Below, piece by piece: positions 34,105 to 46,451 of a DNA stretch of 64,000 nt (its first letter is position 1; each line of letters starts with the position of its first letter). The position numbers and the translations under genes were made by a program. Source of the stretch: an uncultured Acidimicrobiaceae bacterium (lineage in GTDB: Bacteria; Actinomycetota; Acidimicrobiia; Acidimicrobiales; RAAP-2); NCBI GenBank assembly GCA_963770645.1, contig CAVYQL010000002.1, forward strand, positions 146,586 through 210,585, read 5' to 3'. The notes beneath the pieces are model-generated. The model was not told the origin of the DNA. It saw only the letters and a program-made list of their open reading frames with translations, and searched no databases.

Positions 34105-35496
34105 GTGGTCCAAGCCTTCGACGACACCCGCCCCCGTGCCCTCCGGCCGGCTTCTTCCTCCGCTGGCGCGGGCCCGCGGGTGCCTCCGCACGACCTCGAG
34201 GCCGAGCAGTCGCTCCTCGGGGCCATGCTGCTGTCCAACGACGCGGCGTCGGTGGGGATCGAGACCTGCTCGAGCGGTGACTTCTACAAACCGACGCACG
34301 GCCACATCTTCTCGGCTATCCGGGCCCTAATGGAGCGCGGCGAGGCTATCGACGCCGTCACGGTCACTGACGAGTTGAAGCGCTCGGGACTGCTCGAGCA
34401 GGTCGGTGACCCCTCCATCTTCATCTCGCTCCAGGCCAACACGCCCTCGATCGCCAACGCGCGGCACTACGCGCAGATCGTCGAGGAGCACTCCCTCCTG
34501 CGACGGCTGATCGGCGTGGCCGGCGACATCGCCGACATCGGCTACTCGGTTCCAGAGGACGTCAAGGGGGCGGTCGACGAGGCCGAGAAGCTCGTCTTCG
34601 ACGTGGGCGAGCGACGGACGGCCGACACCATGCGCCCGCTGCGCGAGCTGCTGGGCGCGGGACTCGACCGGATCGAGGAGCTGGGCCAGCGGGGCTCGCA
34701 CATCACGGGCGTGGCCACCGGCTACCACGAACTGGACAAGATCCTGCTCGGCTTCCAGCCGTCGTCGCTCAACATCGTGGGTGCTCGTCCCGGCATGGGA
34801 AAGACGAGCTTCGCGCTCGGCGTCCTGGCCAACGTGGGGCTCAACGTCGGACGGCCCGCGCTGTTGTTCTCTCTCGAGATGGGCCACCTCGAGCTCACCC
34901 AGCGGTTGCTCGCGTCCGAAGCCGAGGTCAACGGGCAGAGCCTGCAGACGGGGCGGATCCGCACACAGGACTGGAGCAAGATCGGAATGGCCGTCACCCG
35001 CCTCTCGGGCGCGCCGATCTTCATCGACGACAACCCCAACGTGACCGTGATGGACATCAGGGCCCGGGCGCGGCGGTTGAAGAAGTCCGAGGGAGATCTC
35101 GGGCTGGTGGTGGTCGACTACCTCCAGCTCATGACCGGGCGGGGGCGGGCCGAGAACCGCCAGACCGAGGTGGCCGAGATCAGCCGGGGCCTCAAGATCC
35201 TGGCCCGGGAACTCGAGGTTCCCGTCGTCGCCCTCTCTCAGCTGTCCCGTAACCTCGAGTCGCGTTCGGACAAGACGCCACAACTCTCGGACCTGCGCGA
35301 GTCAGGGTCACTCGAGCAGGACGCCGACGTCGTTCTCTTCATCTACCGCGAGTCGGAGTACAACGACGAGGTACCGATCGACCGCGCGGACGACGCGCTG
35401 GTCGAAGTGGCCAAACACCGAAACGGACCGACCGGCAAGGCCAATCTGCTCTTCCTCAAGCAGTACGCGCGTTTCGAGAACCACCGAGGGGTCTAG
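34105..35496 (+). CDS. dnaB: replicative DNA helicase DnaB
   Basis: PPHDLEAEQSLLGAML, GARPGMGKTSFAL Walker A, VVDYLQLM, RecA-like C-terminus. Normal length, no intein. Confidence 0.95.
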   Translation: MVQAFDDTRPRALRPASSSAGAGPRVPPHDLEAEQSLLGAMLLSNDAASVGIETCSSGDFYKPTHGHIFSAIRALMERGEAIDAVTVTDELKRSGLLEQVGDPSIFISLQANTPSIANARHYAQIVEEHSLLRRLIGVAGDIADIGYSVPEDVKGAVDEAEKLVFDVGERRTADTMRPLRELLGAGLDRIEELGQRGSHITGVATGYHELDKILLGFQPSSLNIVGARPGMGKTSFALGVLANVGLNVGRPALLFSLEMGHLELTQRLLASEAEVNGQSLQTGRIRTQDWSKIGMAVTRLSGAPIFIDDNPNVTVMDIRARARRLKKSEGDLGLVVVDYLQLMTGRGRAENRQTEVAEISRGLKILARELEVPVVALSQLSRNLESRSDKTPQLSDLRESGSLEQDADVVLFIYRESEYNDEVPIDRADDALVEVAKHRNGPTGKANLLFLKQYARFENHRGV

Positions 35497-36290
35497 GCAC
35501 CGGCGGCCGCCGGGAGCACGAAGCGATCGACGGCGTTGGCGAAACCTTCGTCCTCGTTGCTGGTGGTGACGCGTCGGGCGGCCCGCTTGACCTGGGGGTC
35601 GGCGTTGCCCATGGCGATGCACAGTCCTGAGTGGGCGAACATCAAGATGTCATTGGGCATGTCGCCGATGGTGGCGATCTCGGCCGGGTCGAGCTCGTAG
35701 CGTGCCGCGAGGAACTGGGCCACCGAGCCCTTGTTCGCCTCCGGGTGCGTCACGTCGAGGTAGTAGGGCTGTGAGGCGGCCGCGGTCACGTGGTCGCCGA
35801 AGTGCTCCGACGCGGCGAGGGCGGCCCGCTGCACCGCGTCGTGGTCGTCGCTCACCCCGACCAGCTTCGCCACGCCGTCGGTGAGACCGTCGAGACTGGT
35901 CATGACCTTGGGCTCGAATTTCACCGTCCATGCCTCCCGGTCGACATGGGGACCCTTGGGGTCGGGCACGTACCAGTCGGCGCCGCGGTAGAGCCAGACG
36001 ACCAGCTTGAACGAGTGCATCAGGTCGACCACCGGCTGCACGAGGTCCTCGGGCAGTACGTGCTGTTCGATGACCTTCATGTCCCGGTCGACCAGCAGGC
36101 CGCCGTTGAAGGCGGCGATCGGCGTCTGGAGGTCCAGGGGGTCGATGAGCATCTGCATGCCGCGGGGCGGGCGGCCGCTGGTGATGGCGAAGAGGACGCC
36201 GGCGTTGCGCAGACGGCCGACTGCCGCGATCGCGTCGTCGGTCAGCACCTTGTCGTTGGTGACCAGCGTGCCGTCGACGTCGGCCAGCAT
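35493..36290 (-). CDS. Cof-type HAD-IIB phosphatase
   Basis: LMLADVDGTLV (DxD motif), ITSGRP, GDMPNDILMF. The true start may lie slightly upstream with a non-ATG/GTG codon. Confidence 0.8.
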   Translation of the reverse strand: MLADVDGTLVTNDKVLTDDAIAAVGRLRNAGVLFAITSGRPPRGMQMLIDPLDLQTPIAAFNGGLLVDRDMKVIEQHVLPEDLVQPVVDLMHSFKLVVWLYRGADWYVPDPKGPHVDREAWTVKFEPKVMTSLDGLTDGVAKLVGVSDDHDAVQRAALAASEHFGDHVTAAASQPYYLDVTHPEANKGSVAQFLAARYELDPAEIATIGDMPNDILMFAHSGLCIAMGNADPQVKRAARRVTTSNEDEGFANAVDRFVLPAAAGA

Positions 36291-37043: not shown

Positions 37044-37850
37044 TCACGAGCGCGTCGCAGGCAGGTCCACGATGTCGGCCAGCCCCGGTGCGCCCGCGCG
37101 GCGGGCGCGGCGGCGGACCAGCCGCCACCCGAGGACACAGCCACCGGCCAGCGCGACCAGAGCGCCGGCCCACGGCGAGACGAGGTAGCCGAAGAGCACC
37201 GCCGCTGCGTACTCGGTGGCGATCACGACGGTGAGCACGACCGGTCCGAGGCTGGTGAAGCGGCGGTGGAACGCGGCCAGCGTGGCCGGGCTCGTGATGG
37301 GACGCCCGAGGAAGACGGCAAGGCCGCGCACCAAGCCGAACAGCGCGCCGAGCACCACCGCGGCCCACCATGAGCCGGTCAACACAGACAGGACCGCCAG
37401 CAGGTACACGCCGGCGGTCCTGATGTAGGTCACGAACCCCGTGCCGATCTGCCAACCGAAGCCGGCGCCGTAGACCCACGGCCGGAACTGGTCGAGCCAG
37501 CGCTCATTGACCTGGCGATGGTGCACCGGGAGCGCGAGCCCGCCGACCTGCGCGTCCGAGGCTGCGCTGACCACTGACGCGGCGCAAGCCAGCAGCGCCA
37601 AGGTCACGGGCGAGAGCCCCGCCGCGCCCACGCCCAGCGCGACAACCCCCAGCGCCAGCCCGAGTGTCACCCCGCCCGCCACGGAACCGGCGACGAACCA
37701 CAGTGCGGTCGCGCGGTAGCGATGGCCCCGCCCGGCTTCGGCCAGCGGCGTGATCGTTGCCAGCATCGAGACCCCGCACGGCGACCAGGTGGAGCGGGCG
37801 GCCGCGACGACAGCCACCACGGCGGCGGAGACACCGGGCACGATGGTCAT
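37044..37850 (-). CDS. polytopic membrane protein, DsbD/CcdA-like (SPC motif), last gene of the mau-like operon
   Basis: ATG 37850 with AGGAA upstream. About 6 hydrophobic segments. STWSPCGVSML resembles the conserved Cys-containing first TM of DsbD-family electron transporters. Only the last 268 codons of the 684-aa track ORF are real. Confidence 0.5.
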   Translation of the reverse strand: MTIVPGVSAAVVAVVAAARSTWSPCGVSMLATITPLAEAGRGHRYRATALWFVAGSVAGGVTLGLALGVVALGVGAAGLSPVTLALLACAASVVSAASDAQVGGLALPVHHRQVNERWLDQFRPWVYGAGFGWQIGTGFVTYIRTAGVYLLAVLSVLTGSWWAAVVLGALFGLVRGLAVFLGRPITSPATLAAFHRRFTSLGPVVLTVVIATEYAAAVLFGYLVSPWAGALVALAGGCVLGWRLVRRRARRAGAPGLADIVDLPATRS

Positions 37851-37881
37851 GGCAATTCCTTTCGTCGATCTCGAGGGCAGT

Positions 37882-39282
37882 TCATGCCGGCGACCCCAAG
37901 AAGGGCGCCGTGCCGAAGGCGAAGATCCCGCCGTCCGCCGCGACGAGCCAGTAGCCCGCGTCGTCACCGAAGGGGGCCATCCCGACGACGGGCATGGCGA
38001 GCTTGAGCGAACCGGTCGACCCGTCGAACGCCGCGTCGCCGTAGGCGAATATCCCGCCGTCCGCCGCGACGAGCCAGTAGCCGCGCCCCGAGGGCGTGGC
38101 GGCCATGCCCACCACCGGCGCGTTGAGCGGCCGGCCCCCCATGGACCCGAGGAAGGGCGCGTCGCCGTAGGCGAAGATCCCGCCGTCCGCCGCCACCAGC
38201 CAGTAGCCGCTCCCCGAGGGCGTCGCGGCCATGCCCACCACCGGCGCGTTGAGCGGCCGGCCCCCCATGGACCCGAGGAAGGGCGCGTCGCCGTAGTCGA
38301 AGATGCCGCCGTCGGCCGCGACGAGCCAGTAGCCCGATCCGGTCGCGGCGCCCGCCATGCCGACCACGGGCGCGTTGAGCGCTTGGCCCCCCATGGACCC
38401 GAGGAACGGCGCCCCGCCGTAGTCGAAGATGCCGCCGTCGGCCGCGGCGAGCCAGTAGCCGCCGGTGAAGCAGGCGGCGCCCCCCACGACCGGCGCATCG
38501 AGGTGGAGCCCGGACGCGTCGCCCGCATTCGTGAAGTCGCCGTAACCGAGCAGCAGCCCGAAGGAGGTGAGGACCGCGTAGCCGCCTCCGTCGACGCTCG
38601 GCACCATCCCGACCACCTGGCAGTTCGTGGTCGGCGAGTCGCACGGGGGCATCGGCGGCGCGGGCGTCCAGCAGGACTCGTTCTGCTCGGCCGTCGAGTT
38701 GTCGACCGCCACCGCGGTCGTGCACGTGGGGTCGACCTGCCAGGGTGGCACGCAGGCGACGACGCGGCACACGATGCGTCCCAGGCACTCGACGTCCTGG
38801 TTGCACTGGCCGTACCGGAACTGCAGGCAGCCGGTGAGAAAGGAGTTGCACCCCTGGGACCCACAGCCGCAATTGGTCCCGTCGCACTCGGTCTCACAGA
38901 ACGGAAAGCCGCCGCTGCACCCGGCCGCGCAACTACAGGTCGAGTTGCAGTCCATGTAATAGCGCGGCCCGTTGCAGTAGGAGGAGCCCTCCGCGACCCA
39001 CCAGCCACCCATGATGGTGTTCTCGGGGCAGTAGTTGTACCCGCTGACCGCGCAGCAGAACTCCGAGAAGCCCGAGCAGCACGTGCTCCCGCAGTCACAG
39101 CCGGCGTTCCCGCATTCGCAGATCTGGCCGTACGCGGTGCCCGGTCGCAGCGCGAGGTCGAGCCCGGACCCGATGGCGACCGCGCTGCCGACGAACGCGG
39201 AACGGTTGATCAGGTTGCGGCGCGACAACCGACTCTCGAGCGCGCGCGCCGTGCGCGTCACGAGCGCGGTGGACAGACTCAC
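37882..39282 (-). CDS. Tat-signal protein: MauA-like (methylamine dehydrogenase light-chain-like) Cys-rich domain fused to ~6 x 42-aa propeller-like repeats
   Basis: GTG 39282 in a GTGA overlap with the upstream stop. SRRNLINRSAFVGSAVAIGSG twin-arginine leader. About 28 Cys in ~170 aa, including GCDCG...NYCPENTIMGGWWVAEGSSYCNGPRYYMDC, which parallels MauA ICDCSG...NCPPGTKLATASWVASCYNPTDGQSYLIAYRDCC (recalled). Then repeats GYWLVAADGGIFxYGDAPFLGSMGGxxLNAPVVGMAxxxxGx. Confidence 0.6.
   Translation of the reverse strand: MSLSTALVTRTARALESRLSRRNLINRSAFVGSAVAIGSGLDLALRPGTAYGQICECGNAGCDCGSTCCSGFSEFCCAVSGYNYCPENTIMGGWWVAEGSSYCNGPRYYMDCNSTCSCAAGCSGGFPFCETECDGTNCGCGSQGCNSFLTGCLQFRYGQCNQDVECLGRIVCRVVACVPPWQVDPTCTTAVAVDNSTAEQNESCWTPAPPMPPCDSPTTNCQVVGMVPSVDGGGYAVLTSFGLLLGYGDFTNAGDASGLHLDAPVVGGAACFTGGYWLAAADGGIFDYGGAPFLGSMGGQALNAPVVGMAGAATGSGYWLVAADGGIFDYGDAPFLGSMGGRPLNAPVVGMAATPSGSGYWLVAADGGIFAYGDAPFLGSMGGRPLNAPVVGMAATPSGRGYWLVAADGGIFAYGDAAFDGSTGSLKLAMPVVGMAPFGDDAGYWLVAADGGIFAFGTAPFLGSPA
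37885..38586 (-). repeat. 126-bp (42-codon) tandem repeats, about 5.5 copies; the central copies are nearly identical
   Basis: Units starting at 38041 and 38167 differ at only a handful of positions over 126 bp. The outer copies are progressively more diverged. Confidence 0.9.
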
Positions 39283-39860
39283 GACCCGACCATCCCCTTG
39301 GCCGGCGTCGGCCGGACCAGGCGGCGCGCGCCTTCGAGTGCGGCGAGCGACGAGAGCGCCAGCAGGCTCAGCCAGAGCCCGACCACGCTCACGAACAGCA
39401 GGGGGACCCCGGCCCAAGGCTGATGAGCGAGCTCGTCGAGGAGCGTCCCGTGCGACGGGGCGGTGGCGGCGACGACGGCCGCGGCGACGGCGAGGGTCAG
39501 GTCGAGCAGCAGGTGGACGCTCGTCGGCGGCGTGTCCGGCCGTCCGAAGCAGCCGCAAGTCGCGAGTGGGCCGCCGCGCCAGCGTGCGTAGGTGACGACG
39601 GCGCCGAAGGCCGCGTAGGAGAGCGCGACGAGGGCCGCCGTGAGCGGCCGGGGCAGCACCAGCGCGGCGATCCCAAGAACAGCTTCTGCCGACGCGCCGG
39701 CACGTACGAGCCGCCGTGTCGAGCCGAGCGAGGGTGCGGCACGGCCCCGAGTGGCGAGGGCGCCGAGGGCGCGCGCCGTGTCGTCGGGGTGGAGTGCCTT
39801 GGCCACGCCGGCGACCACGAGCAGCCCCGCCGCGACGAGGTAGAGACCGATCAGCTCCAC
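39279..39860 (-). CDS. MauE/DoxX-family redox-associated membrane protein
   Basis: GTG 39860 (VELIGLYLVAAGLLVVAGVAKAL). Four hydrophobic segments with CGCFG between them, as in MauE-family proteins (recalled). Confidence 0.65.
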   Translation of the reverse strand: MELIGLYLVAAGLLVVAGVAKALHPDDTARALGALATRGRAAPSLGSTRRLVRAGASAEAVLGIAALVLPRPLTAALVALSYAAFGAVVTYARWRGGPLATCGCFGRPDTPPTSVHLLLDLTLAVAAAVVAATAPSHGTLLDELAHQPWAGVPLLFVSVVGLWLSLLALSSLAALEGARRLVRPTPAKGMVGS

Positions 39861-40339
39861 CCGGGCCCCGCGGGCGCGTCGACGGGCGCGGCCGGGCTCA
39901 CGCCCAGCGCTTTGAGGAGCGCGTTGACGCGCGGGACGAGGGTGGTGCGGCGCGCGTGGCTGCCCAGTACCGCGTAGAAGGAGAACGGCCGGCCCGCTTC
40001 GGTGAAGAACCACTGGGTGCCCGACTGACCGGGGATACCGCGTCGAAGCACGGTGGGGGAGAAGTCCGCCGCCGAGAGCCCGGCGGGCCGGCCCTGGTGC
40101 GCGAACAAGGCGGTGCCGAGGCTCTCGGGCCCGTACTCGAACAGCGTGGCGAACACGTCGGCGGGTCCCATGATGGACACCGCACCGCTCCCGAAGTCGC
40201 CGGTGTCATCGGGCAGCGGGAACGTGGAGAACTGCGCCACCGGGTAGCTCGAGCCGACGAAGGTCGGCCGCACGATGATCCGGCCCTCGAAGCCTTCGGG
40301 GAGCCGGGCCGAGATGCCGTGCGCGCCGATGGTGGCCAT
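39851..40339 (-). CDS. hypothetical protein (no signal peptide, no recognised domain) inside the mau-like operon
   Basis: 162-aa ORF with balanced composition. Its ATG lies 3 nt after the upstream stop, and its 3' end overlaps the next start by 10 nt. Confidence 0.5.
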   Translation of the reverse strand: MATIGAHGISARLPEGFEGRIIVRPTFVGSSYPVAQFSTFPLPDDTGDFGSGAVSIMGPADVFATLFEYGPESLGTALFAHQGRPAGLSAADFSPTVLRRGIPGQSGTQWFFTEAGRPFSFYAVLGSHARRTTLVPRVNALLKALGVSPAAPVDAPAGPGWS

Positions 40340-40342
40340 GGC

Positions 40343-41254
40343 TCAGCGCCGCACCGGCCGTCCGCGCTCGAGCGGCCCTGGCGTCTGCGGCGGGGACGTG
40401 CCGAAGGGGAACACGTCATCGAGGGTGCGCGGGTACAGACTCGGGTCGCCGGGTTTGATGCCGGCCGCCCGCAGCACCTCGTCGGCGGCCGCTTCGCGGG
40501 CTGGGCCATCGAGGCCGCCGGCACCGACGGCGCCATCAGTGCCGTCAGAGCGGTCAGGGCGGTCAGGGCGGTCAGGGTGGTCAGGGCGGTCAGGGTGACG
40601 GCCCGGGCCCGAAGCGGCGCGGTCGTGCTCGGCGCGTCGGATGAGCTCGGCCAGCTGGCCCACGTGATTGGCCACGCCCTGCCCGACTTTGCTGCCCGTC
40701 GACCCGTCGACGAGGACGAAGAAGGGAGAGCCGGGGACCTGGTAGTCGACCCAGGCCTCGGTCGACATGACGACAGGGATACGCCCGCTGGCCTGCGCCC
40801 GCACCTCGGAGGGGACTTCGCGGTCGGGTCCCTTGGTGACGATGACGGCGCGGCTGTGCCCGGGCAGATCGAGCACGCCGGGTTGCTGGAGCGCGTGCCA
40901 GAAGCCCGCGCACGAGGCGCAGCCCGAGGAGAGGAAGGCCAAGAGCGTGAGGCCGTCGCTGTTGGTGACCGAGATGGCCCGGGCGTCCCCGGTCGGGGTC
41001 ACGCCGGCCACCGTCGGCGCGGGGCCGAGCGGCGGGCTGCCCGCCGGTGGGACCAGCGAGACCGGTGGCGCCACCGCGACCGCCGCGGCCCGGCTGGCCG
41101 TGGCGACCGTCCCCTCGTCCAGGGCGGGGTCGCCCACACCCGCGCCCAGCTCGTGCAGCGAACGGAGGATGTCGGCGTGGGACCGCAAGAGCCCGGCCAC
41201 CAGGATCCCGAGGACCAGCACCACGAACGTCGAGACCACGACCAGAGCAATCAC
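40343..41254 (-). CDS. membrane-anchored thioredoxin-fold protein, MauD/TlpA-like (CxxC)
   Basis: GTG 41254 preceded by AAGGAGG. N-terminal TM (VIALVVVSTFVVLVLGILVAGLL). Trx-like core with LAFLSSGCASCAGFW. Pro/Asp-rich repeat linker and C-terminal tail. Confidence 0.62.
   Translation of the reverse strand: MIALVVVSTFVVLVLGILVAGLLRSHADILRSLHELGAGVGDPALDEGTVATASRAAAVAVAPPVSLVPPAGSPPLGPAPTVAGVTPTGDARAISVTNSDGLTLLAFLSSGCASCAGFWHALQQPGVLDLPGHSRAVIVTKGPDREVPSEVRAQASGRIPVVMSTEAWVDYQVPGSPFFVLVDGSTGSKVGQGVANHVGQLAELIRRAEHDRAASGPGRHPDRPDHPDRPDRPDRSDGTDGAVGAGGLDGPAREAAADEVLRAAGIKPGDPSLYPRTLDDVFPFGTSPPQTPGPLERGRPVRR
40544..40597 (-). repeat. 6 x 9-bp in-frame tandem repeat (PDR/HPD units) in the MauD-like gene
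   Basis: gtcagagcg gtcagggcg gtcagggcg gtcagggtg gtcagggcg gtcagggtg on the plus strand. Confidence 0.9.
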
Positions 41255-41369: not shown

Positions 41370-42557
41370 GTGGTGGTAGCTGAAGATCTCTTCCTCCCCG
41401 ACCCCGAGCCCCGGTCGGTGCGCTACACGGTGATCTCGGTGGACGACCACGTCGTGGAGCCGGCCCACACCTTCGAGGGGCGCCTCCCGGCCTCCCTCGC
41501 ACCGAGGGCGCCGCGCATCGTCGAGACCGACCTCGGGCACCAGGTCTGGGAGTTCGAGGGTGAGCGGTACACCCAGGTCGGGATGAACGCCGTGGCCGGC
41601 CGGCGGCCCGAGACCTACGGCCTCGAGCCCTTCCGTTTCGACCAGATGCGGCCCGGCTGCTACGACGTCGAGGCCCGGGTGCGTGACATGGACATCAACG
41701 GCGTCTGGGCGTCGGTCAACTTCCCGTCGCAGATCACCGGCTTCTGCGGTCGTGTCTTCTTCTCGAGCCCTGACCGCGACCTGGGTCTGGCCTGCGTGCG
41801 CGCCTGGAACGACTGGCTCTTCGAAGAGTGGTACACCCGCTACCCCGAGCGGATCGTGCCGCTCGGGATCACCTATCTGGCCGAACCCGAACTGGCGGTG
41901 GCGGAGATCGAGCGCAACGCCGCCCGCGGCTTCACCTCGGTCACCTTCCCCGAGCGCCCGCACGCCATCGGACTCCCCTCGTTGTGGGACCGTTCGCACT
42001 GGGACCCGATCATGGACGCCGTCGTCGCGACCGACAGCGTCGTCTCGCTCCACGTCGGCAGCTCGGGCATGGAGATCGGGCCGCCCGACGGCGCGCCGCT
42101 CCAGATCGGCGCCACCCTGTTCGGCCAACTGTCGCTCACCGCGTGCGCGGAGTGGCTGTGGTCCGAGCACGCCGTGCGCCGCCCTTCGTTGAAGGTGGCC
42201 ATGAGCGAGGGCGGCATCGGGTGGGTGGCCATGCTGCTCGACCGCCTCGAAAACATGGTGGACCGCTCGGGCTACGGGAAGGGGTGGGCGATGCGGCCGG
42301 CCGACGTCTTGAAGCGCAATTTCTGGTTCTGCACGCTCGACGATCCCTCGACCATCGACACCCGTCATGCCATCGGCGTCGAGAACATCATGGTCGAGGT
42401 CGACTATCCCCACGGTGACGGGACGTGGCCCGACACCCAGCAGGTGATCGAGGAGTGCTGGGGTCACATCCCCGACGACGAGTTGCGCGCCATGTGCTGT
42501 GAGAACGCGGCGGCGCTGTACCGTCACCCCCTGCCCGACCAGGTGCTACCCCGCTGA
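41370..42557 (+). CDS. amidohydrolase_2 (ACMSD-like) family metal-dependent hydrolase
   Basis: YTVISVDDHVVEP..., DMDINGVWASVNFPS, WNDWLFEEW, EVDYPHGDGTWP are typical of this family. GTG 41370. Upstream part of the track ORF is artefactual. Confidence 0.72.
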   Translation: MVVAEDLFLPDPEPRSVRYTVISVDDHVVEPAHTFEGRLPASLAPRAPRIVETDLGHQVWEFEGERYTQVGMNAVAGRRPETYGLEPFRFDQMRPGCYDVEARVRDMDINGVWASVNFPSQITGFCGRVFFSSPDRDLGLACVRAWNDWLFEEWYTRYPERIVPLGITYLAEPELAVAEIERNAARGFTSVTFPERPHAIGLPSLWDRSHWDPIMDAVVATDSVVSLHVGSSGMEIGPPDGAPLQIGATLFGQLSLTACAEWLWSEHAVRRPSLKVAMSEGGIGWVAMLLDRLENMVDRSGYGKGWAMRPADVLKRNFWFCTLDDPSTIDTRHAIGVENIMVEVDYPHGDGTWPDTQQVIEECWGHIPDDELRAMCCENAAALYRHPLPDQVLPR

Positions 42558-42596
42558 CCCGCTGATCCGCTGACCGACTCGAGAGGAGGACCGCGC

Positions 42597-43331
42597 ATGT
42601 TCACGCCGACGGCGGACAAGCTGATCCCCGACTTGACGCCGCGTGAGGAACTGGTCGTCCTCGCCCGCGCCCTGTGGCGCGAGGGCTACAACGACCACCT
42701 GGCCGGCCACATCACCGTGAACCAGGGCGACGGCACGCTGCTCTGTAACCCGTGGCTCCTGACCTGGGCCGAGCTGAGGCCCTCCCAGGTGCTGCGCATC
42801 GATCTCGAGGGCCGCGTGGTCGAGGGCGACTGGCCCGTCCCGCTGGGCATTCCGCTCCACCTCGAGCTGCACAAGATGCGCCACGACGTGAAGTGGGCGA
42901 TGCACAACCACCCGCTCTTCGGCACCGTGTGGGCCGACATCGCCGAACTGCCGCCGATCCTCGACCAGAGCTCGGCGCTGGGTGGCGGGACGCTCGCGCT
43001 GGTCGACGAGTACGAGGGCCCCGTCAACGACGCCGGCAGCGCCCGGCGCGCCGTGGAGCAGATGGGCGACGCGTCGATGGCGCTCTTGGCGGGCCACGGC
43101 GTGTTCGTGCTCGGCGGTTCGGCCCGGGCGGTCCATCAGCGCGCCGTGGCCCTCGAGCAACGGTGCCAGCACGCCTGGTACGCGCGCGCCGTCGGCGGCT
43201 CGGCAGTCTCACGGGTCCCCCAAACATTCATCGACCTCGTCTCGCGGGGGAACGGCGAGGGTTTCATCGGATTCTGGGAGGCAGCGGTCCGAAACGAGCT
43301 GGCCGCCGACCCCGACTTGCTCCAGCCCTAG
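42597..43331 (+). CDS. class II aldolase/adducin family protein
   Basis: GHITVN..., HLELHKMR.DV.WAMHNHP, LLAGHGVFVLG motifs. Confidence 0.8.
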   Translation: MFTPTADKLIPDLTPREELVVLARALWREGYNDHLAGHITVNQGDGTLLCNPWLLTWAELRPSQVLRIDLEGRVVEGDWPVPLGIPLHLELHKMRHDVKWAMHNHPLFGTVWADIAELPPILDQSSALGGGTLALVDEYEGPVNDAGSARRAVEQMGDASMALLAGHGVFVLGGSARAVHQRAVALEQRCQHAWYARAVGGSAVSRVPQTFIDLVSRGNGEGFIGFWEAAVRNELAADPDLLQP

Positions 43332-44404
43332 CGGCTGGCGGCGCCCGTCCCGAAGACCTCGCTCAGCTCGAACGGGACGGGCGTCTGGAGCTGGGCGTAG
43401 GTGCACGATGGCGGGTCGCGGTCGGGCCGCCAGCGCACGAACGAGGTGGCGTGGCGGAAGCGGTCGTGCTGGAGGTGGTCGTAGGAGACCTCGCACACCG
43501 CCTCGGGCCGGACCGCCTCCCAGGTCATGTCCTTGCCCGCGTTCCAGCGATTGGTGGCACCGGGCGCGCGGCCCTCGGCCTGTGCCTCTGCCCAGCCCGC
43601 CCACGGGTGTCCCTTCAGGGCATTCGTGCGATAGGGCGCGAGCTCGTCGGTGAGCTCGCGCCGCCGGGCCACACTGAACCCCGACGCCACTCCGACATGG
43701 TGCAGGGTCCCTGAGGAGTCAAAGAGGCCGAGCAGCAAGGAACCGACGCCGGCACCGTCTTTGTGCGTGCGGAAGCCGGCCACCACACAGTCGGCCGTGC
43801 GCTGGTGCTTGACCTTGAGCATGGCGCGCTTGTCGGGCAGGTAGGCGAGGTCGGCCCCCTTGGCCACCACGCCGTCGAGGCCGGCGCCCTCGAAGCGGGC
43901 GAACCAGTCGGCTGCCACGTCGGGGTCCCGGGTCGCCGGGGTGAGGTGCACCGGCGCGCGCACCTTCTTGAGAAGCTTCTCGAGCGTGGCGCGGCGCCGG
44001 GCGTACGGGGTCTCGAGGAACGAGGTGTCGTCGTGCGCCAGCAGGTCGAAGGCCACGAAGGATGCCGGGGTCGACTCGGCCAGCTGGCGGATGCGCGTCG
44101 CCGCCGGATGGATGCGCTGGGAGAGGGCGTCGAAGTCGAGCCCGTTGGGGCCGGCGACCACGATCTCGCCGTCGAGCACGCAGCGGGCCGGGAGCTCGCG
44201 CACCAGGGCGGCAACGAGCTCGGGGAAGTAGCGCGTGAGCGGCTTCTCGTTGCGGCTCCCGAGCTCGACGTCGTCGCCGTCGCGGAAGACGATGCAGCGG
44301 AAGCCGTCCCACTTGGGCTCGTAGAAGAGCCCGTCGTCGCGCGGCAGGTCGCGGGTGAGCTTGGCCAGCATGGGCGCCACCGGCGGGCGGACGGGCAGGT
44401 TCAT
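43328..44404 (-). CDS. ligC: ATP-dependent DNA ligase (LigC-type, adenylation + OB domains only)
   Basis: MLAKL...YEPKWDGFRCIVF (KxDG adenylation Lys), LDGEIVV, DGVVAK, LKVKH. ATGA overlap with the upstream PHP gene. Confidence 0.85.
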   Translation of the reverse strand: MNLPVRPPVAPMLAKLTRDLPRDDGLFYEPKWDGFRCIVFRDGDDVELGSRNEKPLTRYFPELVAALVRELPARCVLDGEIVVAGPNGLDFDALSQRIHPAATRIRQLAESTPASFVAFDLLAHDDTSFLETPYARRRATLEKLLKKVRAPVHLTPATRDPDVAADWFARFEGAGLDGVVAKGADLAYLPDKRAMLKVKHQRTADCVVAGFRTHKDGAGVGSLLLGLFDSSGTLHHVGVASGFSVARRRELTDELAPYRTNALKGHPWAGWAEAQAEGRAPGATNRWNAGKDMTWEAVRPEAVCEVSYDHLQHDRFRHATSFVRWRPDRDPPSCTYAQLQTPVPFELSEVFGTGAASR

Positions 44405-45426
44405 GACGACGCCCCGTGCTCGCCGGCCCAGGCCACGAGCTCGTCGGCTGTGCCGCGGTTGACCACACGCTCGGAGGGGACGCCCGCGGCAACGGCATTG
44501 CGGCAGCCGCGGCCGAGCCATTCGAGCTGTCCGGGGGCGTGCGCGTCGGTGTCGATGGCGAAGGAGCAGCCGAGCTCGACGGCCTGGCGCAGGAGGTCTT
44601 CGGGGGGATCCTGGCGTTCGGGGCGCGAGTTGATCTCGACAGCCGTGCCGGTACGCGCACAGGCCGTGAACACCGCGTCGGCGTCGAAGGACGACTGCGG
44701 ACGGCCCCGGCCGGTGATCAGGCGGCCCGTGCAGTGGCCGAGGATGTCGCTGTGCGGGCTCTCGATGGCGGCCAGCATGCGCGCCGTCATCTGGGGCTCG
44801 TCCATGCGCAGCTTGGAGTGCACGCTGGCGACCACCACGTCGAGCTCTCCCAAGAGCTCGGGGTCGAGGTCGAGCGAGCCATCTTCCAAGATGTCGACTT
44901 CCATTCCGGTGAGGATGCGGAACGGGCCCAGTTGCGCGTTCAGCCCGCGAACCACGTCGAGCTGTTCGCGCATCCGCTCCTCGTTCAGACCGTGGGCCAC
45001 GGTGAGGCGCGCGCTGTGATCGGTCAGCACCAGGTACTCGCGGCCGAGGCCGCGGGCGGCTTCGGCCATCTCGAGGATGGGGCTCCCCCCGTCGGACCAG
45101 TCCGAGTGTGAGTGGCAGTCGCCGCGTAAGGACTCGAGGAGCGCCGCAGCCGGACCCTCGAGGACGAGGTCCTCGGGTTCCTCGTCCAGCTTGACCAGGT
45201 AGGCGGGGGTGTCACCGCGCAGGGCCTCGACAATCACCTGCGCCGTGGACTTGCCCACGCCCTCGATGCTCTGGAGCCGGCCCGCCGCGGCGAGCGACTC
45301 CAACTCCTCCCGCGGCACCGCTGCGATGGCACGGGCAGCATGGCGGAAGGCCCGCACCTTGTAGGTGTCGGCGCCACCGCGCTCCAGGCGGAACGCAACC
45401 TCGTTGAGCGCGTCGAGCGGTTCCAT
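44401..45426 (-). CDS. PolX-like HhH + PHP domain protein lacking a polymerase palm
   Basis: N-terminus YKVRAFRHAARAI...LQSIEGVGKSTAQVI (HhH). PHP motifs GDCHSHSDWSDG, VLTDHS, SVHS, GHCTGR, DTDAH. Confidence 0.8.
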   Translation of the reverse strand: MEPLDALNEVAFRLERGGADTYKVRAFRHAARAIAAVPREELESLAAAGRLQSIEGVGKSTAQVIVEALRGDTPAYLVKLDEEPEDLVLEGPAAALLESLRGDCHSHSDWSDGGSPILEMAEAARGLGREYLVLTDHSARLTVAHGLNEERMREQLDVVRGLNAQLGPFRILTGMEVDILEDGSLDLDPELLGELDVVVASVHSKLRMDEPQMTARMLAAIESPHSDILGHCTGRLITGRGRPQSSFDADAVFTACARTGTAVEINSRPERQDPPEDLLRQAVELGCSFAIDTDAHAPGQLEWLGRGCRNAVAAGVPSERVVNRGTADELVAWAGEHGASS

Positions 45427-45440
45427 CCCCACCCCGCGCA

Positions 45441-46451
45441 CTAGTCCTTCTTGGCGCGACTGGGTGCCACGCGGGTCGGCTCGTCGGGCATCTTGGGGTA
45501 CTGGGGTGGCCACGGCGCATCGTGCAGGCCGGCCTCGCGGTCCCGTGCCGCCAGCTCGAGCAGGGGCTCGAGTGACTGTGGCCGGGCCGCGATGTCGGCC
45601 CACGGGTCGCCCCGCCGCCGTACCAGTTCGGGCACCGTCGAGATGGTGAGATCGTCGGGGACGACGGACTCCACCTCGTCCCACGACAGCGGGGTCGAAA
45701 CCTGGCCGCCGGTGCGGGGCCGCGCGAACCAGGCACCGAAGACCGTCTTGTGCGGCGCGTTCTGGTTGAAGTCGACGAAGACCCTGCTCCCGCGCTCCTC
45801 CTTCCACCAGTTGGCCGTGACGTCGTCGGGAAACCGGCGCTCGAGCTCGCGGGCCAGCGCCAGCGCGCCGGCGCGGACCTGCACCGAGTCCCAGCGCGGT
45901 TCCAGCCGGAGATAGACGTGCAAGCCGTGGCTGCCCGTGGTCTTGGGGTAACCCCTGAGGCCGAGCTCTTCGAGGAAGTCACGACACCGCAGCGCGGCGA
46001 CGCGCACCTCGTCGAAGCCGATGCCCTTCGTCGGGTCCAGGTCGATGCGCAGCTCGTCGGCGTGCGCAGGGTCGGCGGCCAGGTACGGCCAGAGGTGGAG
46101 CCCGAGGCAGCCGACGTTCACCGCCCAGATGACGTGCGCAAGGTCGGCGACGACGAGCGCGTTGGAGGTCGTGCCGTTGGGCGTCGACACGATGGTGGAC
46201 TGCAGCCAGTCGGGTGCACCGGCCGGGATGCGCTTTTGGTAGAAGGACTTGCCTGTCGCGCCGTCGGGGAAGCGCTGCAACAGGGCAGGACGCCCGCCGG
46301 CGGTGTTGAGCAGGTGGTCGCCGATCTCGAGGTAATAGGAGACGAGGTCGGACTTGGTCGCGCCGAGGCCGGGGAAGTACACCTTGTCGGGCCGGGAGAT
46401 ACGGAGCTCGTGGCCGTCGACCTCCACCAAGCGTTCGTCGTCCCCTGGCAC
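45441..46451 (-). CDS. LigD-type primase-polymerase domain protein (PolDom / Prim-PolC-like)
   Basis: ISRPDKVYFP, LQRFPDG..GKSFYQK, RIDLDP, PKTTGSHGLHVY, VFVDFNQN motifs of the archaeo-eukaryotic primase fold. Start GTG 46451 uncertain. Confidence 0.8.
   Translation of the reverse strand: MPGDDERLVEVDGHELRISRPDKVYFPGLGATKSDLVSYYLEIGDHLLNTAGGRPALLQRFPDGATGKSFYQKRIPAGAPDWLQSTIVSTPNGTTSNALVVADLAHVIWAVNVGCLGLHLWPYLAADPAHADELRIDLDPTKGIGFDEVRVAALRCRDFLEELGLRGYPKTTGSHGLHVYLRLEPRWDSVQVRAGALALARELERRFPDDVTANWWKEERGSRVFVDFNQNAPHKTVFGAWFARPRTGGQVSTPLSWDEVESVVPDDLTISTVPELVRRRGDPWADIAARPQSLEPLLELAARDREAGLHDAPWPPQYPKMPDEPTRVAPSRAKKD

Follow-up and report, generated by a model that had tools for sequence, protein, structure and literature searches.

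The closest described counterparts of the locus treated here are the mau (methylamine dehydrogenase) gene clusters of Pseudomonadota, for which the cluster on plasmid 1 of Paracoccus denitrificans (mauR-F-B-E-D-A-amicyanin-J-G; mauRFBEDACJGMN) served as reference. According to the older genetic literature, mutants in mauF, mauE or mauD lose the small subunit of the enzyme. Among this trio, MauE alone has recently been given a biochemical role: it is described as a quinone-linked disulfide generator working via a thioredoxin-fold partner, it substitutes for DsbB in Escherichia coli and it is proposed to be a generalist, second in frequency only to DsbB, with MauA present in just 10% of the MauE-bearing species (bioRxiv 10.64898/2026.03.05.709764). 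Here, we analysed a stretch of 64,000 nucleotides from an uncultured Acidimicrobiaceae bacterium (contig CAVYQL010000002.1, positions 146,586 to 210,585; hereafter the window), in which the open reading frame (ORF) table and the sequence revealed a cassette of five tightly packed minus-strand genes at 37044-41254. The cassette combines homologues of MauF, MauE and MauD with a cysteine-rich protein carrying a twin-arginine translocation (Tat) signal, with no dehydrogenase genes nearby, and we believe with moderate confidence that the five genes form one operon, which would encode both a dedicated system for extracytoplasmic thiol-disulfide maturation and the client that it serves.

In transcription order, the genes are g1 (40343-41254, minus strand, as for all features below; 303 aa), predicted to encode a membrane-anchored MauD-like protein of the thioredoxin type, g2 (39851-40339; 162 aa), a cytoplasmic protein of a new family, g3 (39279-39860; 193 aa), a putative DsbB-like membrane protein of the MauE family, g4 (37882-39282; 466 aa), the cysteine-rich cargo with a Tat signal and repeats, and g5 (37044-37850; 268 aa), a polytopic MauF-like membrane protein. 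The genes g1 and g2 are separated by 3 nt, g2 and g3 overlap by 10 nt, g3 and g4 overlap by 4 nt (GTGA), and 31 nt lie between g4 and g5. This arrangement bears out the preliminary description of this DNA, where five tightly coupled minus-strand genes had been reported from the letters alone. Gene starts were picked from ribosome-binding sites and ortholog alignment, that of g1 being a GTG located 8 nt downstream of AAAGGAGG. With a divergent amidohydrolase-type gene on its upstream side and a convergent gene on its downstream side, the cassette stands as a discrete unit. Scanning this high-GC DNA for promoters and terminators was uninformative.

Homologues of MauF, MauE and MauD beside a twin-arginine, cysteine-rich client are common to the cassette and the P. 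denitrificans cluster. The latter also has MauB, MauA (PF02975), amicyanin, MauG, MauJ and MauM/N, which the cassette is without, whereas the cassette has a client built on another, larger domain with 28 cysteines, the extra cytoplasmic g2 and a long C-terminal extension on g1; the hosts are Acidimicrobiales in one case and Pseudomonadota in the other. Throughout the 64-kb window, no ORF has two CxxCH motifs and tblastn detected neither amicyanin nor MauA, and MauB, MauG and cupredoxin families were not found within ±10 kb in the relatives L207 and L001 (4.2-Mb contig). Within this scope, no MauB, MauG or amicyanin accompanies the cassette, an absence that the preliminary description had already remarked on for the window. 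In literature searches, we found no account of the cassette or its cargo family, nor of g2 or selenocysteine in MauF/DsbD_2.

The conservation of the cassette was assessed by a locus scan of one genome per species (GTDB species representatives), which was seeded on the cargo and not on MauE. At least 587 loci were recovered, all from Acidimicrobiales. Among the 81 loci that were fetched, from different Acidimicrobiales genomes, the five genes were colinear wherever the contig reaches far enough, with flanking genes that varied from locus to locus. More divergent cargo relatives (approximately 50% identity) were likewise accompanied by all the other genes in a changed order, and at least five orders other than that of the window occur in divergent lineages, including Trx-g5-g2-MauE-cargo and MauE-cargo-Trx-g5-g2 (Trx, thioredoxin-type gene). 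When 53 metagenomic loci with a length of 3.5 kb or more were examined, 49 had the g1>g5>g2 block intact; g2 stood apart in one of the remaining four, and the contig showed g5 alone or g5 with g2 in the other three. The MauE>cargo pair was found on either side of this block, with a few loci in which the pair was separated, and the MauE stop codon overlaps the cargo start in the window as well as in the three divergent cassettes for which coordinates were read (L082, L084 and L085). This pattern of rearrangement suggests that the cassette consists of two sub-modules, and because the linkage survives rearrangement, it constitutes strong evidence for a joint function of the five genes, whose co-occurrence in related genomes had been anticipated. 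In three relatives (P0020, P0109 and P0114), MauE and the cargo were encoded in a single ORF (e.g. 652 aa); these genes are genuinely fused, or else the 4-nt overlap contains a sequencing or frame error.

Pfam and NCBIfam recognised g3 alone among the five window proteins, with a match to PF07291 (E=7.1e-14) of 52.7 bits, well above the gathering cut-off of 27, in line with the MauE-like nature previously suggested for it. The putative active site, C102-G-C104-F-G (39543-39557), is kept in orthologs and in divergent cassettes, as are a lysine and a glutamate, Lys21 and Glu59, located in the first two helices. The MauE studied experimentally requires a CXC motif, with Phe-Gly after it, in the loop that joins helices 3 and 4, and a conserved Lys in helix 1 and Glu in helix 2 lie near the docked quinone (bioRxiv 10.64898/2026.03.05.709764). 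CGC-F-G between helices 3 and 4, the Lys/Glu pair and a co-encoded thioredoxin-fold partner are all common to both, and g3 can be regarded as a bona fide MauE. The preprint presents MauE as a generalist acting through DsbA, whereas the MauE of the cassette is tied to one client gene and is accompanied by a MauF-like protein and g2, neither of which is discussed there.

The g1 protein has an N-terminal membrane helix, a predicted redox motif (C112-A-S-C115; 40910-40921) and a Pro/Asp-rich linker. When the profile of g1 orthologs was aligned with P. denitrificans MauD by hhalign, a probability of 94.4% was obtained (E=8.4e-8) over 103 columns that include the CxxC and cis-Pro region, and tblastn gave matches (E ~1e-5) in or beside the mauD genes of Novosphingobium and Burkholderia. 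In the PDB, DsbC (4fyb) was matched with E=0.023; hhalign with E. coli thioredoxin aligned the cis-Pro loop alone, without significance. On this basis, g1 is assigned as a distant MauD homologue, which upholds the MauD-like label of the preliminary description. At its C-terminus (40343-40500), g1 carries a motif, 'DxxLxAAGIxPGDPSLYP', that is kept in cassettes at approximately 40% identity and has no counterpart in authentic MauD; it is possibly a docking peptide. The linker, which is poorly conserved across orthologs, contains HPDRPD-type hexapeptides encoded by a tandem DNA repeat (40548-40610).

The family profile of g5 aligned with P. denitrificans MauF over 186 columns (hhalign probability 98.5%, E=3e-15), the sequence 'STWSPCG' being identical in the g5 family and MauF, and tblastn detected MauF as well (E=3e-6, 31% identity over 168 aa). 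A single cysteine is invariant in the family, Cys25 (codon 37776-37778), located within 'RSTWSPCG'. The DsbD/CcdA-like character proposed earlier for g5 stood only in part: neither the window protein nor 55 relatives with a cysteine at this position matched the Pfam DsbD/CcdA families (PF02683, PF13386), while PF13386 (DsbD_2) was matched by three of ten truncated and five of eight full-length relatives with a UGA codon at the same position (see below), with two of these UGA-type relatives exceeding the cut-off of 24.9 bits. By transitivity, g5 and MauF may thus be tied remotely to the DsbD/CcdA superfamily. Like the DsbD/CcdA conduits that serve ResA, TlpA or DsbC, g5 is polytopic, has 'SPC' in the first helix and is encoded beside a membrane-anchored CxxC protein; it has one conserved Cys or selenocysteine (Sec), whereas DsbD/CcdA have two, in helices 1 and 4, and a search of the g5 family for the second redox cysteine found Cys25 alone to be invariant. 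It also carries an invariant 'HxRQVNExWL' loop, which to our knowledge is not a feature of DsbD, and comparison with the PDB gave chance-level matches to GAPDH only. The protein is therefore better described as a MauF homologue than as a recognisable member of the DsbD/CcdA families and, because of this homology, the cassette is more mau-like than had been appreciated. A 684-aa ORF listed at 37044-39098 of the minus strand is an artefact of the g5 frame remaining open through g4, and such artefacts are frequent in this high-GC window.

In three divergent cassettes, the gene calls for g5 were 28 codons short, and the missing part reads '...RSTWSP-TGA-GESML...' (L082:1380-1440, L084:4454-4520 and L085:4699-4760), with the TGA falling exactly where the window protein, itself of the Cys form, has its invariant Cys25. 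A pattern search revealed at least 120 metagenomic contigs with UGA at this position (L086-L205), and 105 distinct UGA-type sequences were obtained, each with a conserved hydrophobic helix encoded 5' of the TGA. Two further cases lie outside the pattern search, namely L206 (100-160) and the cultured Thermomicrobium roseum ('ALWSP-TGA-GYSM'). In keeping with truncated gene calls, 34 of the 150 best cluster representatives start at the next Met; gene callers were seen to shorten UGA-type g5 to approximately 198 aa.

Two hairpins were found 3' of the UGA in UGA-type g5. The first, GAUGCU-N4-AGCAUC, does not vary, although the search pattern had set the 5' arm and left the 3' arm free. The second comprises 8 bp with a GGN loop approximately 36 nt past the UGA, and double changes are seen at five of the pairs. 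Among 500 shuffles, none reached the observed value on four of five measures and one did so for pairs changed on both sides. Furthermore, 95% of the alignment cells were paired, compared to 33-50% when the partners were slid, and only 63% pairing was found on the same columns in Cys-type g5 genes, which lack the covarying hairpin. No tRNA-Sec was found near the UGA-type loci, which are on short metagenomic contigs. According to published tables, T. roseum and Ilumatobacter, a genus of the Acidimicrobiia, have SelD/SelA/SelB and several selenoproteins, and Actinomarina, also of the Acidimicrobiia, possesses Sec machinery. The UGA-type and Cys-type proteins probably form a Cys/Sec pair, and the former an undescribed selenoprotein family, with the literature as our source for the Sec machinery. 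Because UGA replaces the cysteine and a covarying hairpin follows, this residue is likely to be redox-active. The exchange at the single invariant cysteine of the MauF family is direct evidence, at the level of sequence, for a redox function of MauF and names the residue involved.

The cluster of T. roseum, located on megaplasmid NC_011961 (L209), offers a further comparison. It combines a MauE, a MauD-like protein and the MauF-like protein with UGA in place of Cys with small Tat-type cysteine-rich proteins, which are short, contain 'GGAWWAC' and bear the annotation of methylamine dehydrogenase light chains. Different from the cassette, its MauE is fused to a domain of approximately 400 aa that is repeated in three adjoining genes, and no g2 homologue was found in the cluster. 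This mau-like cluster of a cultured non-proteobacterium spans positions 700-9350 of L209, with two light-chain-like cysteine-rich proteins, of which one has no annotation, three paralogues of 400-456 aa, the MauF-like TGA at ~8743 and no MauB annotated.

The putative client, g4, begins with a predicted signal peptide (39130-39282; LSRRNLINRSAF ... AYG), which is probably cleaved after 'AYG'. Its twin-arginine motif, 'SRRNLINRSAF', is kept in all relatives, and one relative fragment is labelled 'twin-arginine translocation signal domain-containing protein' by NCBI. The signal is followed by a domain of approximately 170 aa (residues 52-221; 38620-39129) with 28 cysteines between residues 55 and 221. 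In 39 diverse members, 20 of the cysteines are invariant and 4 near-invariant, and the sequences GWW, RYYxDC, FRYGQCNQ and GRIxCR are invariant as well. The members, which are numerous, all annotated as 'hypothetical' and confined to Acidimicrobiales/Acidimicrobiia assemblies, are judged from these comparisons to represent a new family; the AlphaFold model of the domain has a mean predicted local distance difference test (pLDDT) score of 62.

The C-terminal part of g4 (37885-38583) consists of 5.5 repeats of 42 aa (GYWLVAADGGIFxYGDAPFLGSMGGxxLNAPVVGMAATPSG), which are possibly a beta-propeller, with no match in the PDB by sequence profile. The preliminary description had remarked that the light-chain-like domain carries its own propeller-like repeats. 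That they are a MauB-like heavy chain is rejected, as they bear no relation to MauB, and they are absent from short cargo variants. They are also dispensable, given that other cassettes carry different C-terminal domains, some g4 relatives keeping the cysteine-rich domain with unrelated ones. A 42-aa repeat of this kind ('GYWLVASDGGIFSFGDAxFYGS') was also observed on SpoIID/LytB, YkuD L,D-transpeptidase and FN3 proteins in Acidimicrobiia (P0055, P0074 and P0112). No Pfam model exists for the repeat, and its distribution suggests a mobile extracellular module with a role in binding to the cell envelope. Because the C-terminus varies and the repeat occurs on other proteins, the cysteine-rich domain is the part of g4 that is linked to the cassette.

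How this domain relates to MauA bears directly on an alternative explanation, in which g4 is a divergent quinoprotein of the MauA type with a Trp-derived cofactor at the invariant GWW, matured by the MauF/E/D homologues as in methylamine dehydrogenase and with the repeats standing in for the heavy chain. The presence of all three mau accessory homologues, a twin-arginine leader like that of MauA and the many invariant polar and aromatic residues suggestive of an active site are in its favour. So is a short block found by hhalign: aligned with a single MauA, the g4 profile yielded a probability of 0.7% over 17 columns, rising to 6.3% over 30 columns with a six-member MauA alignment, and the longer block places 'CPxxT..GWW..RYYxDC' of g4 over 'CPPGT..SW..YRDCC' of MauA, i.e. 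over the hairpin with the quinone Trp of tryptophan tryptophylquinone (TTQ). In this low-probability alignment, an invariant Trp of g4 is aligned with Trp57 of MauA, and no counterpart of Trp108, the second TTQ tryptophan, was found within the aligned region. The T. roseum light-chain-like proteins look intermediate ('CPSGTQEGGAWWAC..RYLDCC'), and the light chain of aromatic amine dehydrogenase was among the weak Foldseek results (rank 18, E=7), where nothing was significant (best E=3.6). The low probabilities of these alignments and the remaining evidence speak against this alternative. PF02975 matched neither the window protein nor any of the 39 members at E≤10, and no match to the PDB was obtained by sequence or profile, though many light chains of methylamine and aromatic amine dehydrogenases are deposited there; moreover, no MauG, flavoprotein or radical-SAM maturase was found in or near the cassette, and the repeats are, as described, unrelated to MauB and dispensable. 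Membership of g4 in the MauA family was consequently rejected, so that of the earlier characterisation of this protein the Tat signal, the cysteine-rich domain and the repeats stand and the MauA-like assignment falls. Distant common ancestry of g4 and MauA may be regarded as a lead and not as a demonstration, and we consider it unlikely that g4 is a quinoprotein.

A further-reaching variant of the same idea would make MauF a selenium- or sulfur-based transmembrane redox component and the MauF/E/D trio a portable system, older and broader than methylamine dehydrogenase. In Acidimicrobiales, the trio would serve a new extracellular enzyme whose Cys-knotted domain shares its origin with MauA and bears a cross-linked or quinone-type Trp cofactor made without MauG. 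We regard this variant as improbable.

A second alternative is that the cysteine-rich domain binds a metal or a metal-sulfur cluster before export by Tat, with the MauD- and MauF-like proteins keeping thiols reduced outside the cell. Proteins exported by Tat are usually folded and already loaded with cofactor, the N-terminal 'CxCxxxxCxCxxxCC......CC' of the domain resembles metallothionein and is modelled by AlphaFold with a pLDDT of only ~40, and relatives of g5 fall into the DsbD_2 family, whose superfamily supplies reductant. Nonetheless, MauE generates oxidant in the only experiments available, MauA is itself a Tat substrate that ends up with six disulfides, g4 shows neither a conserved His nor a canonical Fe-S motif, and the number of its conserved cysteines is even (20 invariant plus 4 near-invariant). 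We regard the metal-binding alternative as unlikely.

The maturation system that we favour, in which g4 is the client, would operate as follows. The g4 protein would be exported via Tat with its approximately 28 cysteines reduced, whereupon MauE (g3) would make disulfides and pass the electrons to a membrane quinone in a DsbB-like manner. Acting as a carrier or isomerase, g1 may ferry disulfides to g4 or reshuffle them, with g5 as a second membrane redox component that would most likely keep g1 in the right redox state for isomerisation, and g2 is probably the adaptor of g5 on the cytoplasmic side. In an alternative wiring, which also fits the g1>g5>g2 adjacency, g5 and g1 would together make up an arm for reduction or isomerisation, with MauE oxidising the client more directly. 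Several points weigh against the system as drawn. The g1 protein falls under the equivalog cut-off of the MauD model TIGR02661 (E=0.01; 15.3 versus 188.6 bits), and no Pfam thioredoxin-like match was found in 30 members at E≤1, whereas authentic MauD matches AhpC-TSA and Thioredoxin_2. In addition, g5 has one conserved cysteine, unlike DsbD/CcdA, MauE has been argued to be a generalist oxidase while the client specificity proposed here is drawn from linkage, and the N-terminal CxC/CC cluster of g4, with its low-confidence model, could bind metal. That the MauE/MauD/MauF-like proteins are general disulfide machinery and the cysteine-rich protein merely a neighbour, as the proposed generalist role of MauE and the 10% of MauE species with MauA might suggest, is very unlikely, as cargo and machinery occur together in every sufficiently long locus across rearranged orders, MauE and cargo overlap at start and stop wherever coordinates were read and are occasionally fused, and the scan that recovered the loci was seeded on the cargo and not on MauE.

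A self-contained system for maturing an exported cysteine-rich protein accordingly remains the best reading of the cassette, as the preliminary description had concluded, and its view, that a mau-like accessory module serves a cysteine-rich Tat protein in the absence of a dehydrogenase, was largely right. The trio is evidently separable from the dehydrogenase, being tied here to a different cysteine-rich Tat substrate in another phylum. Because all three proteins are linked to another substrate without a dehydrogenase, the trio can be viewed as a general, client-specific maturation module, and the cassette offers a second client with which it could be dissected. The cargo domain and g2 are, furthermore, large, unannotated families that are widespread in soil Acidimicrobiales.

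The g2 protein, correctly described before as a 162-aa protein without a signal peptide, is also free of cysteine in the window copy and was always found within the cassette. No Pfam, NCBIfam or PDB sequence match was obtained, the PDB profile search giving a marginal DUF4365 match (E=0.076), and the 1011 relatives detected are all of approximately 160 aa and unnamed. Its AlphaFold model (pLDDT 82.6) weakly resembles Tsi3, PsbP, MTC28 and LpqN in Foldseek (E 0.015-0.08, probability up to 0.95, template modelling score 0.4-0.5), which hints at a PsbP/Mog1-like fold. This fold is typical of binding or adaptor proteins, and g2 may be an adaptor or chaperone. Identity of g2 with MauJ was ruled out, there being no similarity between them.

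The flanks of the cassette (34105-36290 and 41400-45800) encode DnaB, a HAD-type hydrolase, an amidohydrolase-type protein, a class II aldolase-like protein, an ATP-dependent DNA ligase and a PHP-domain polymerase X-like protein, in a synteny that matches the close relative L207.

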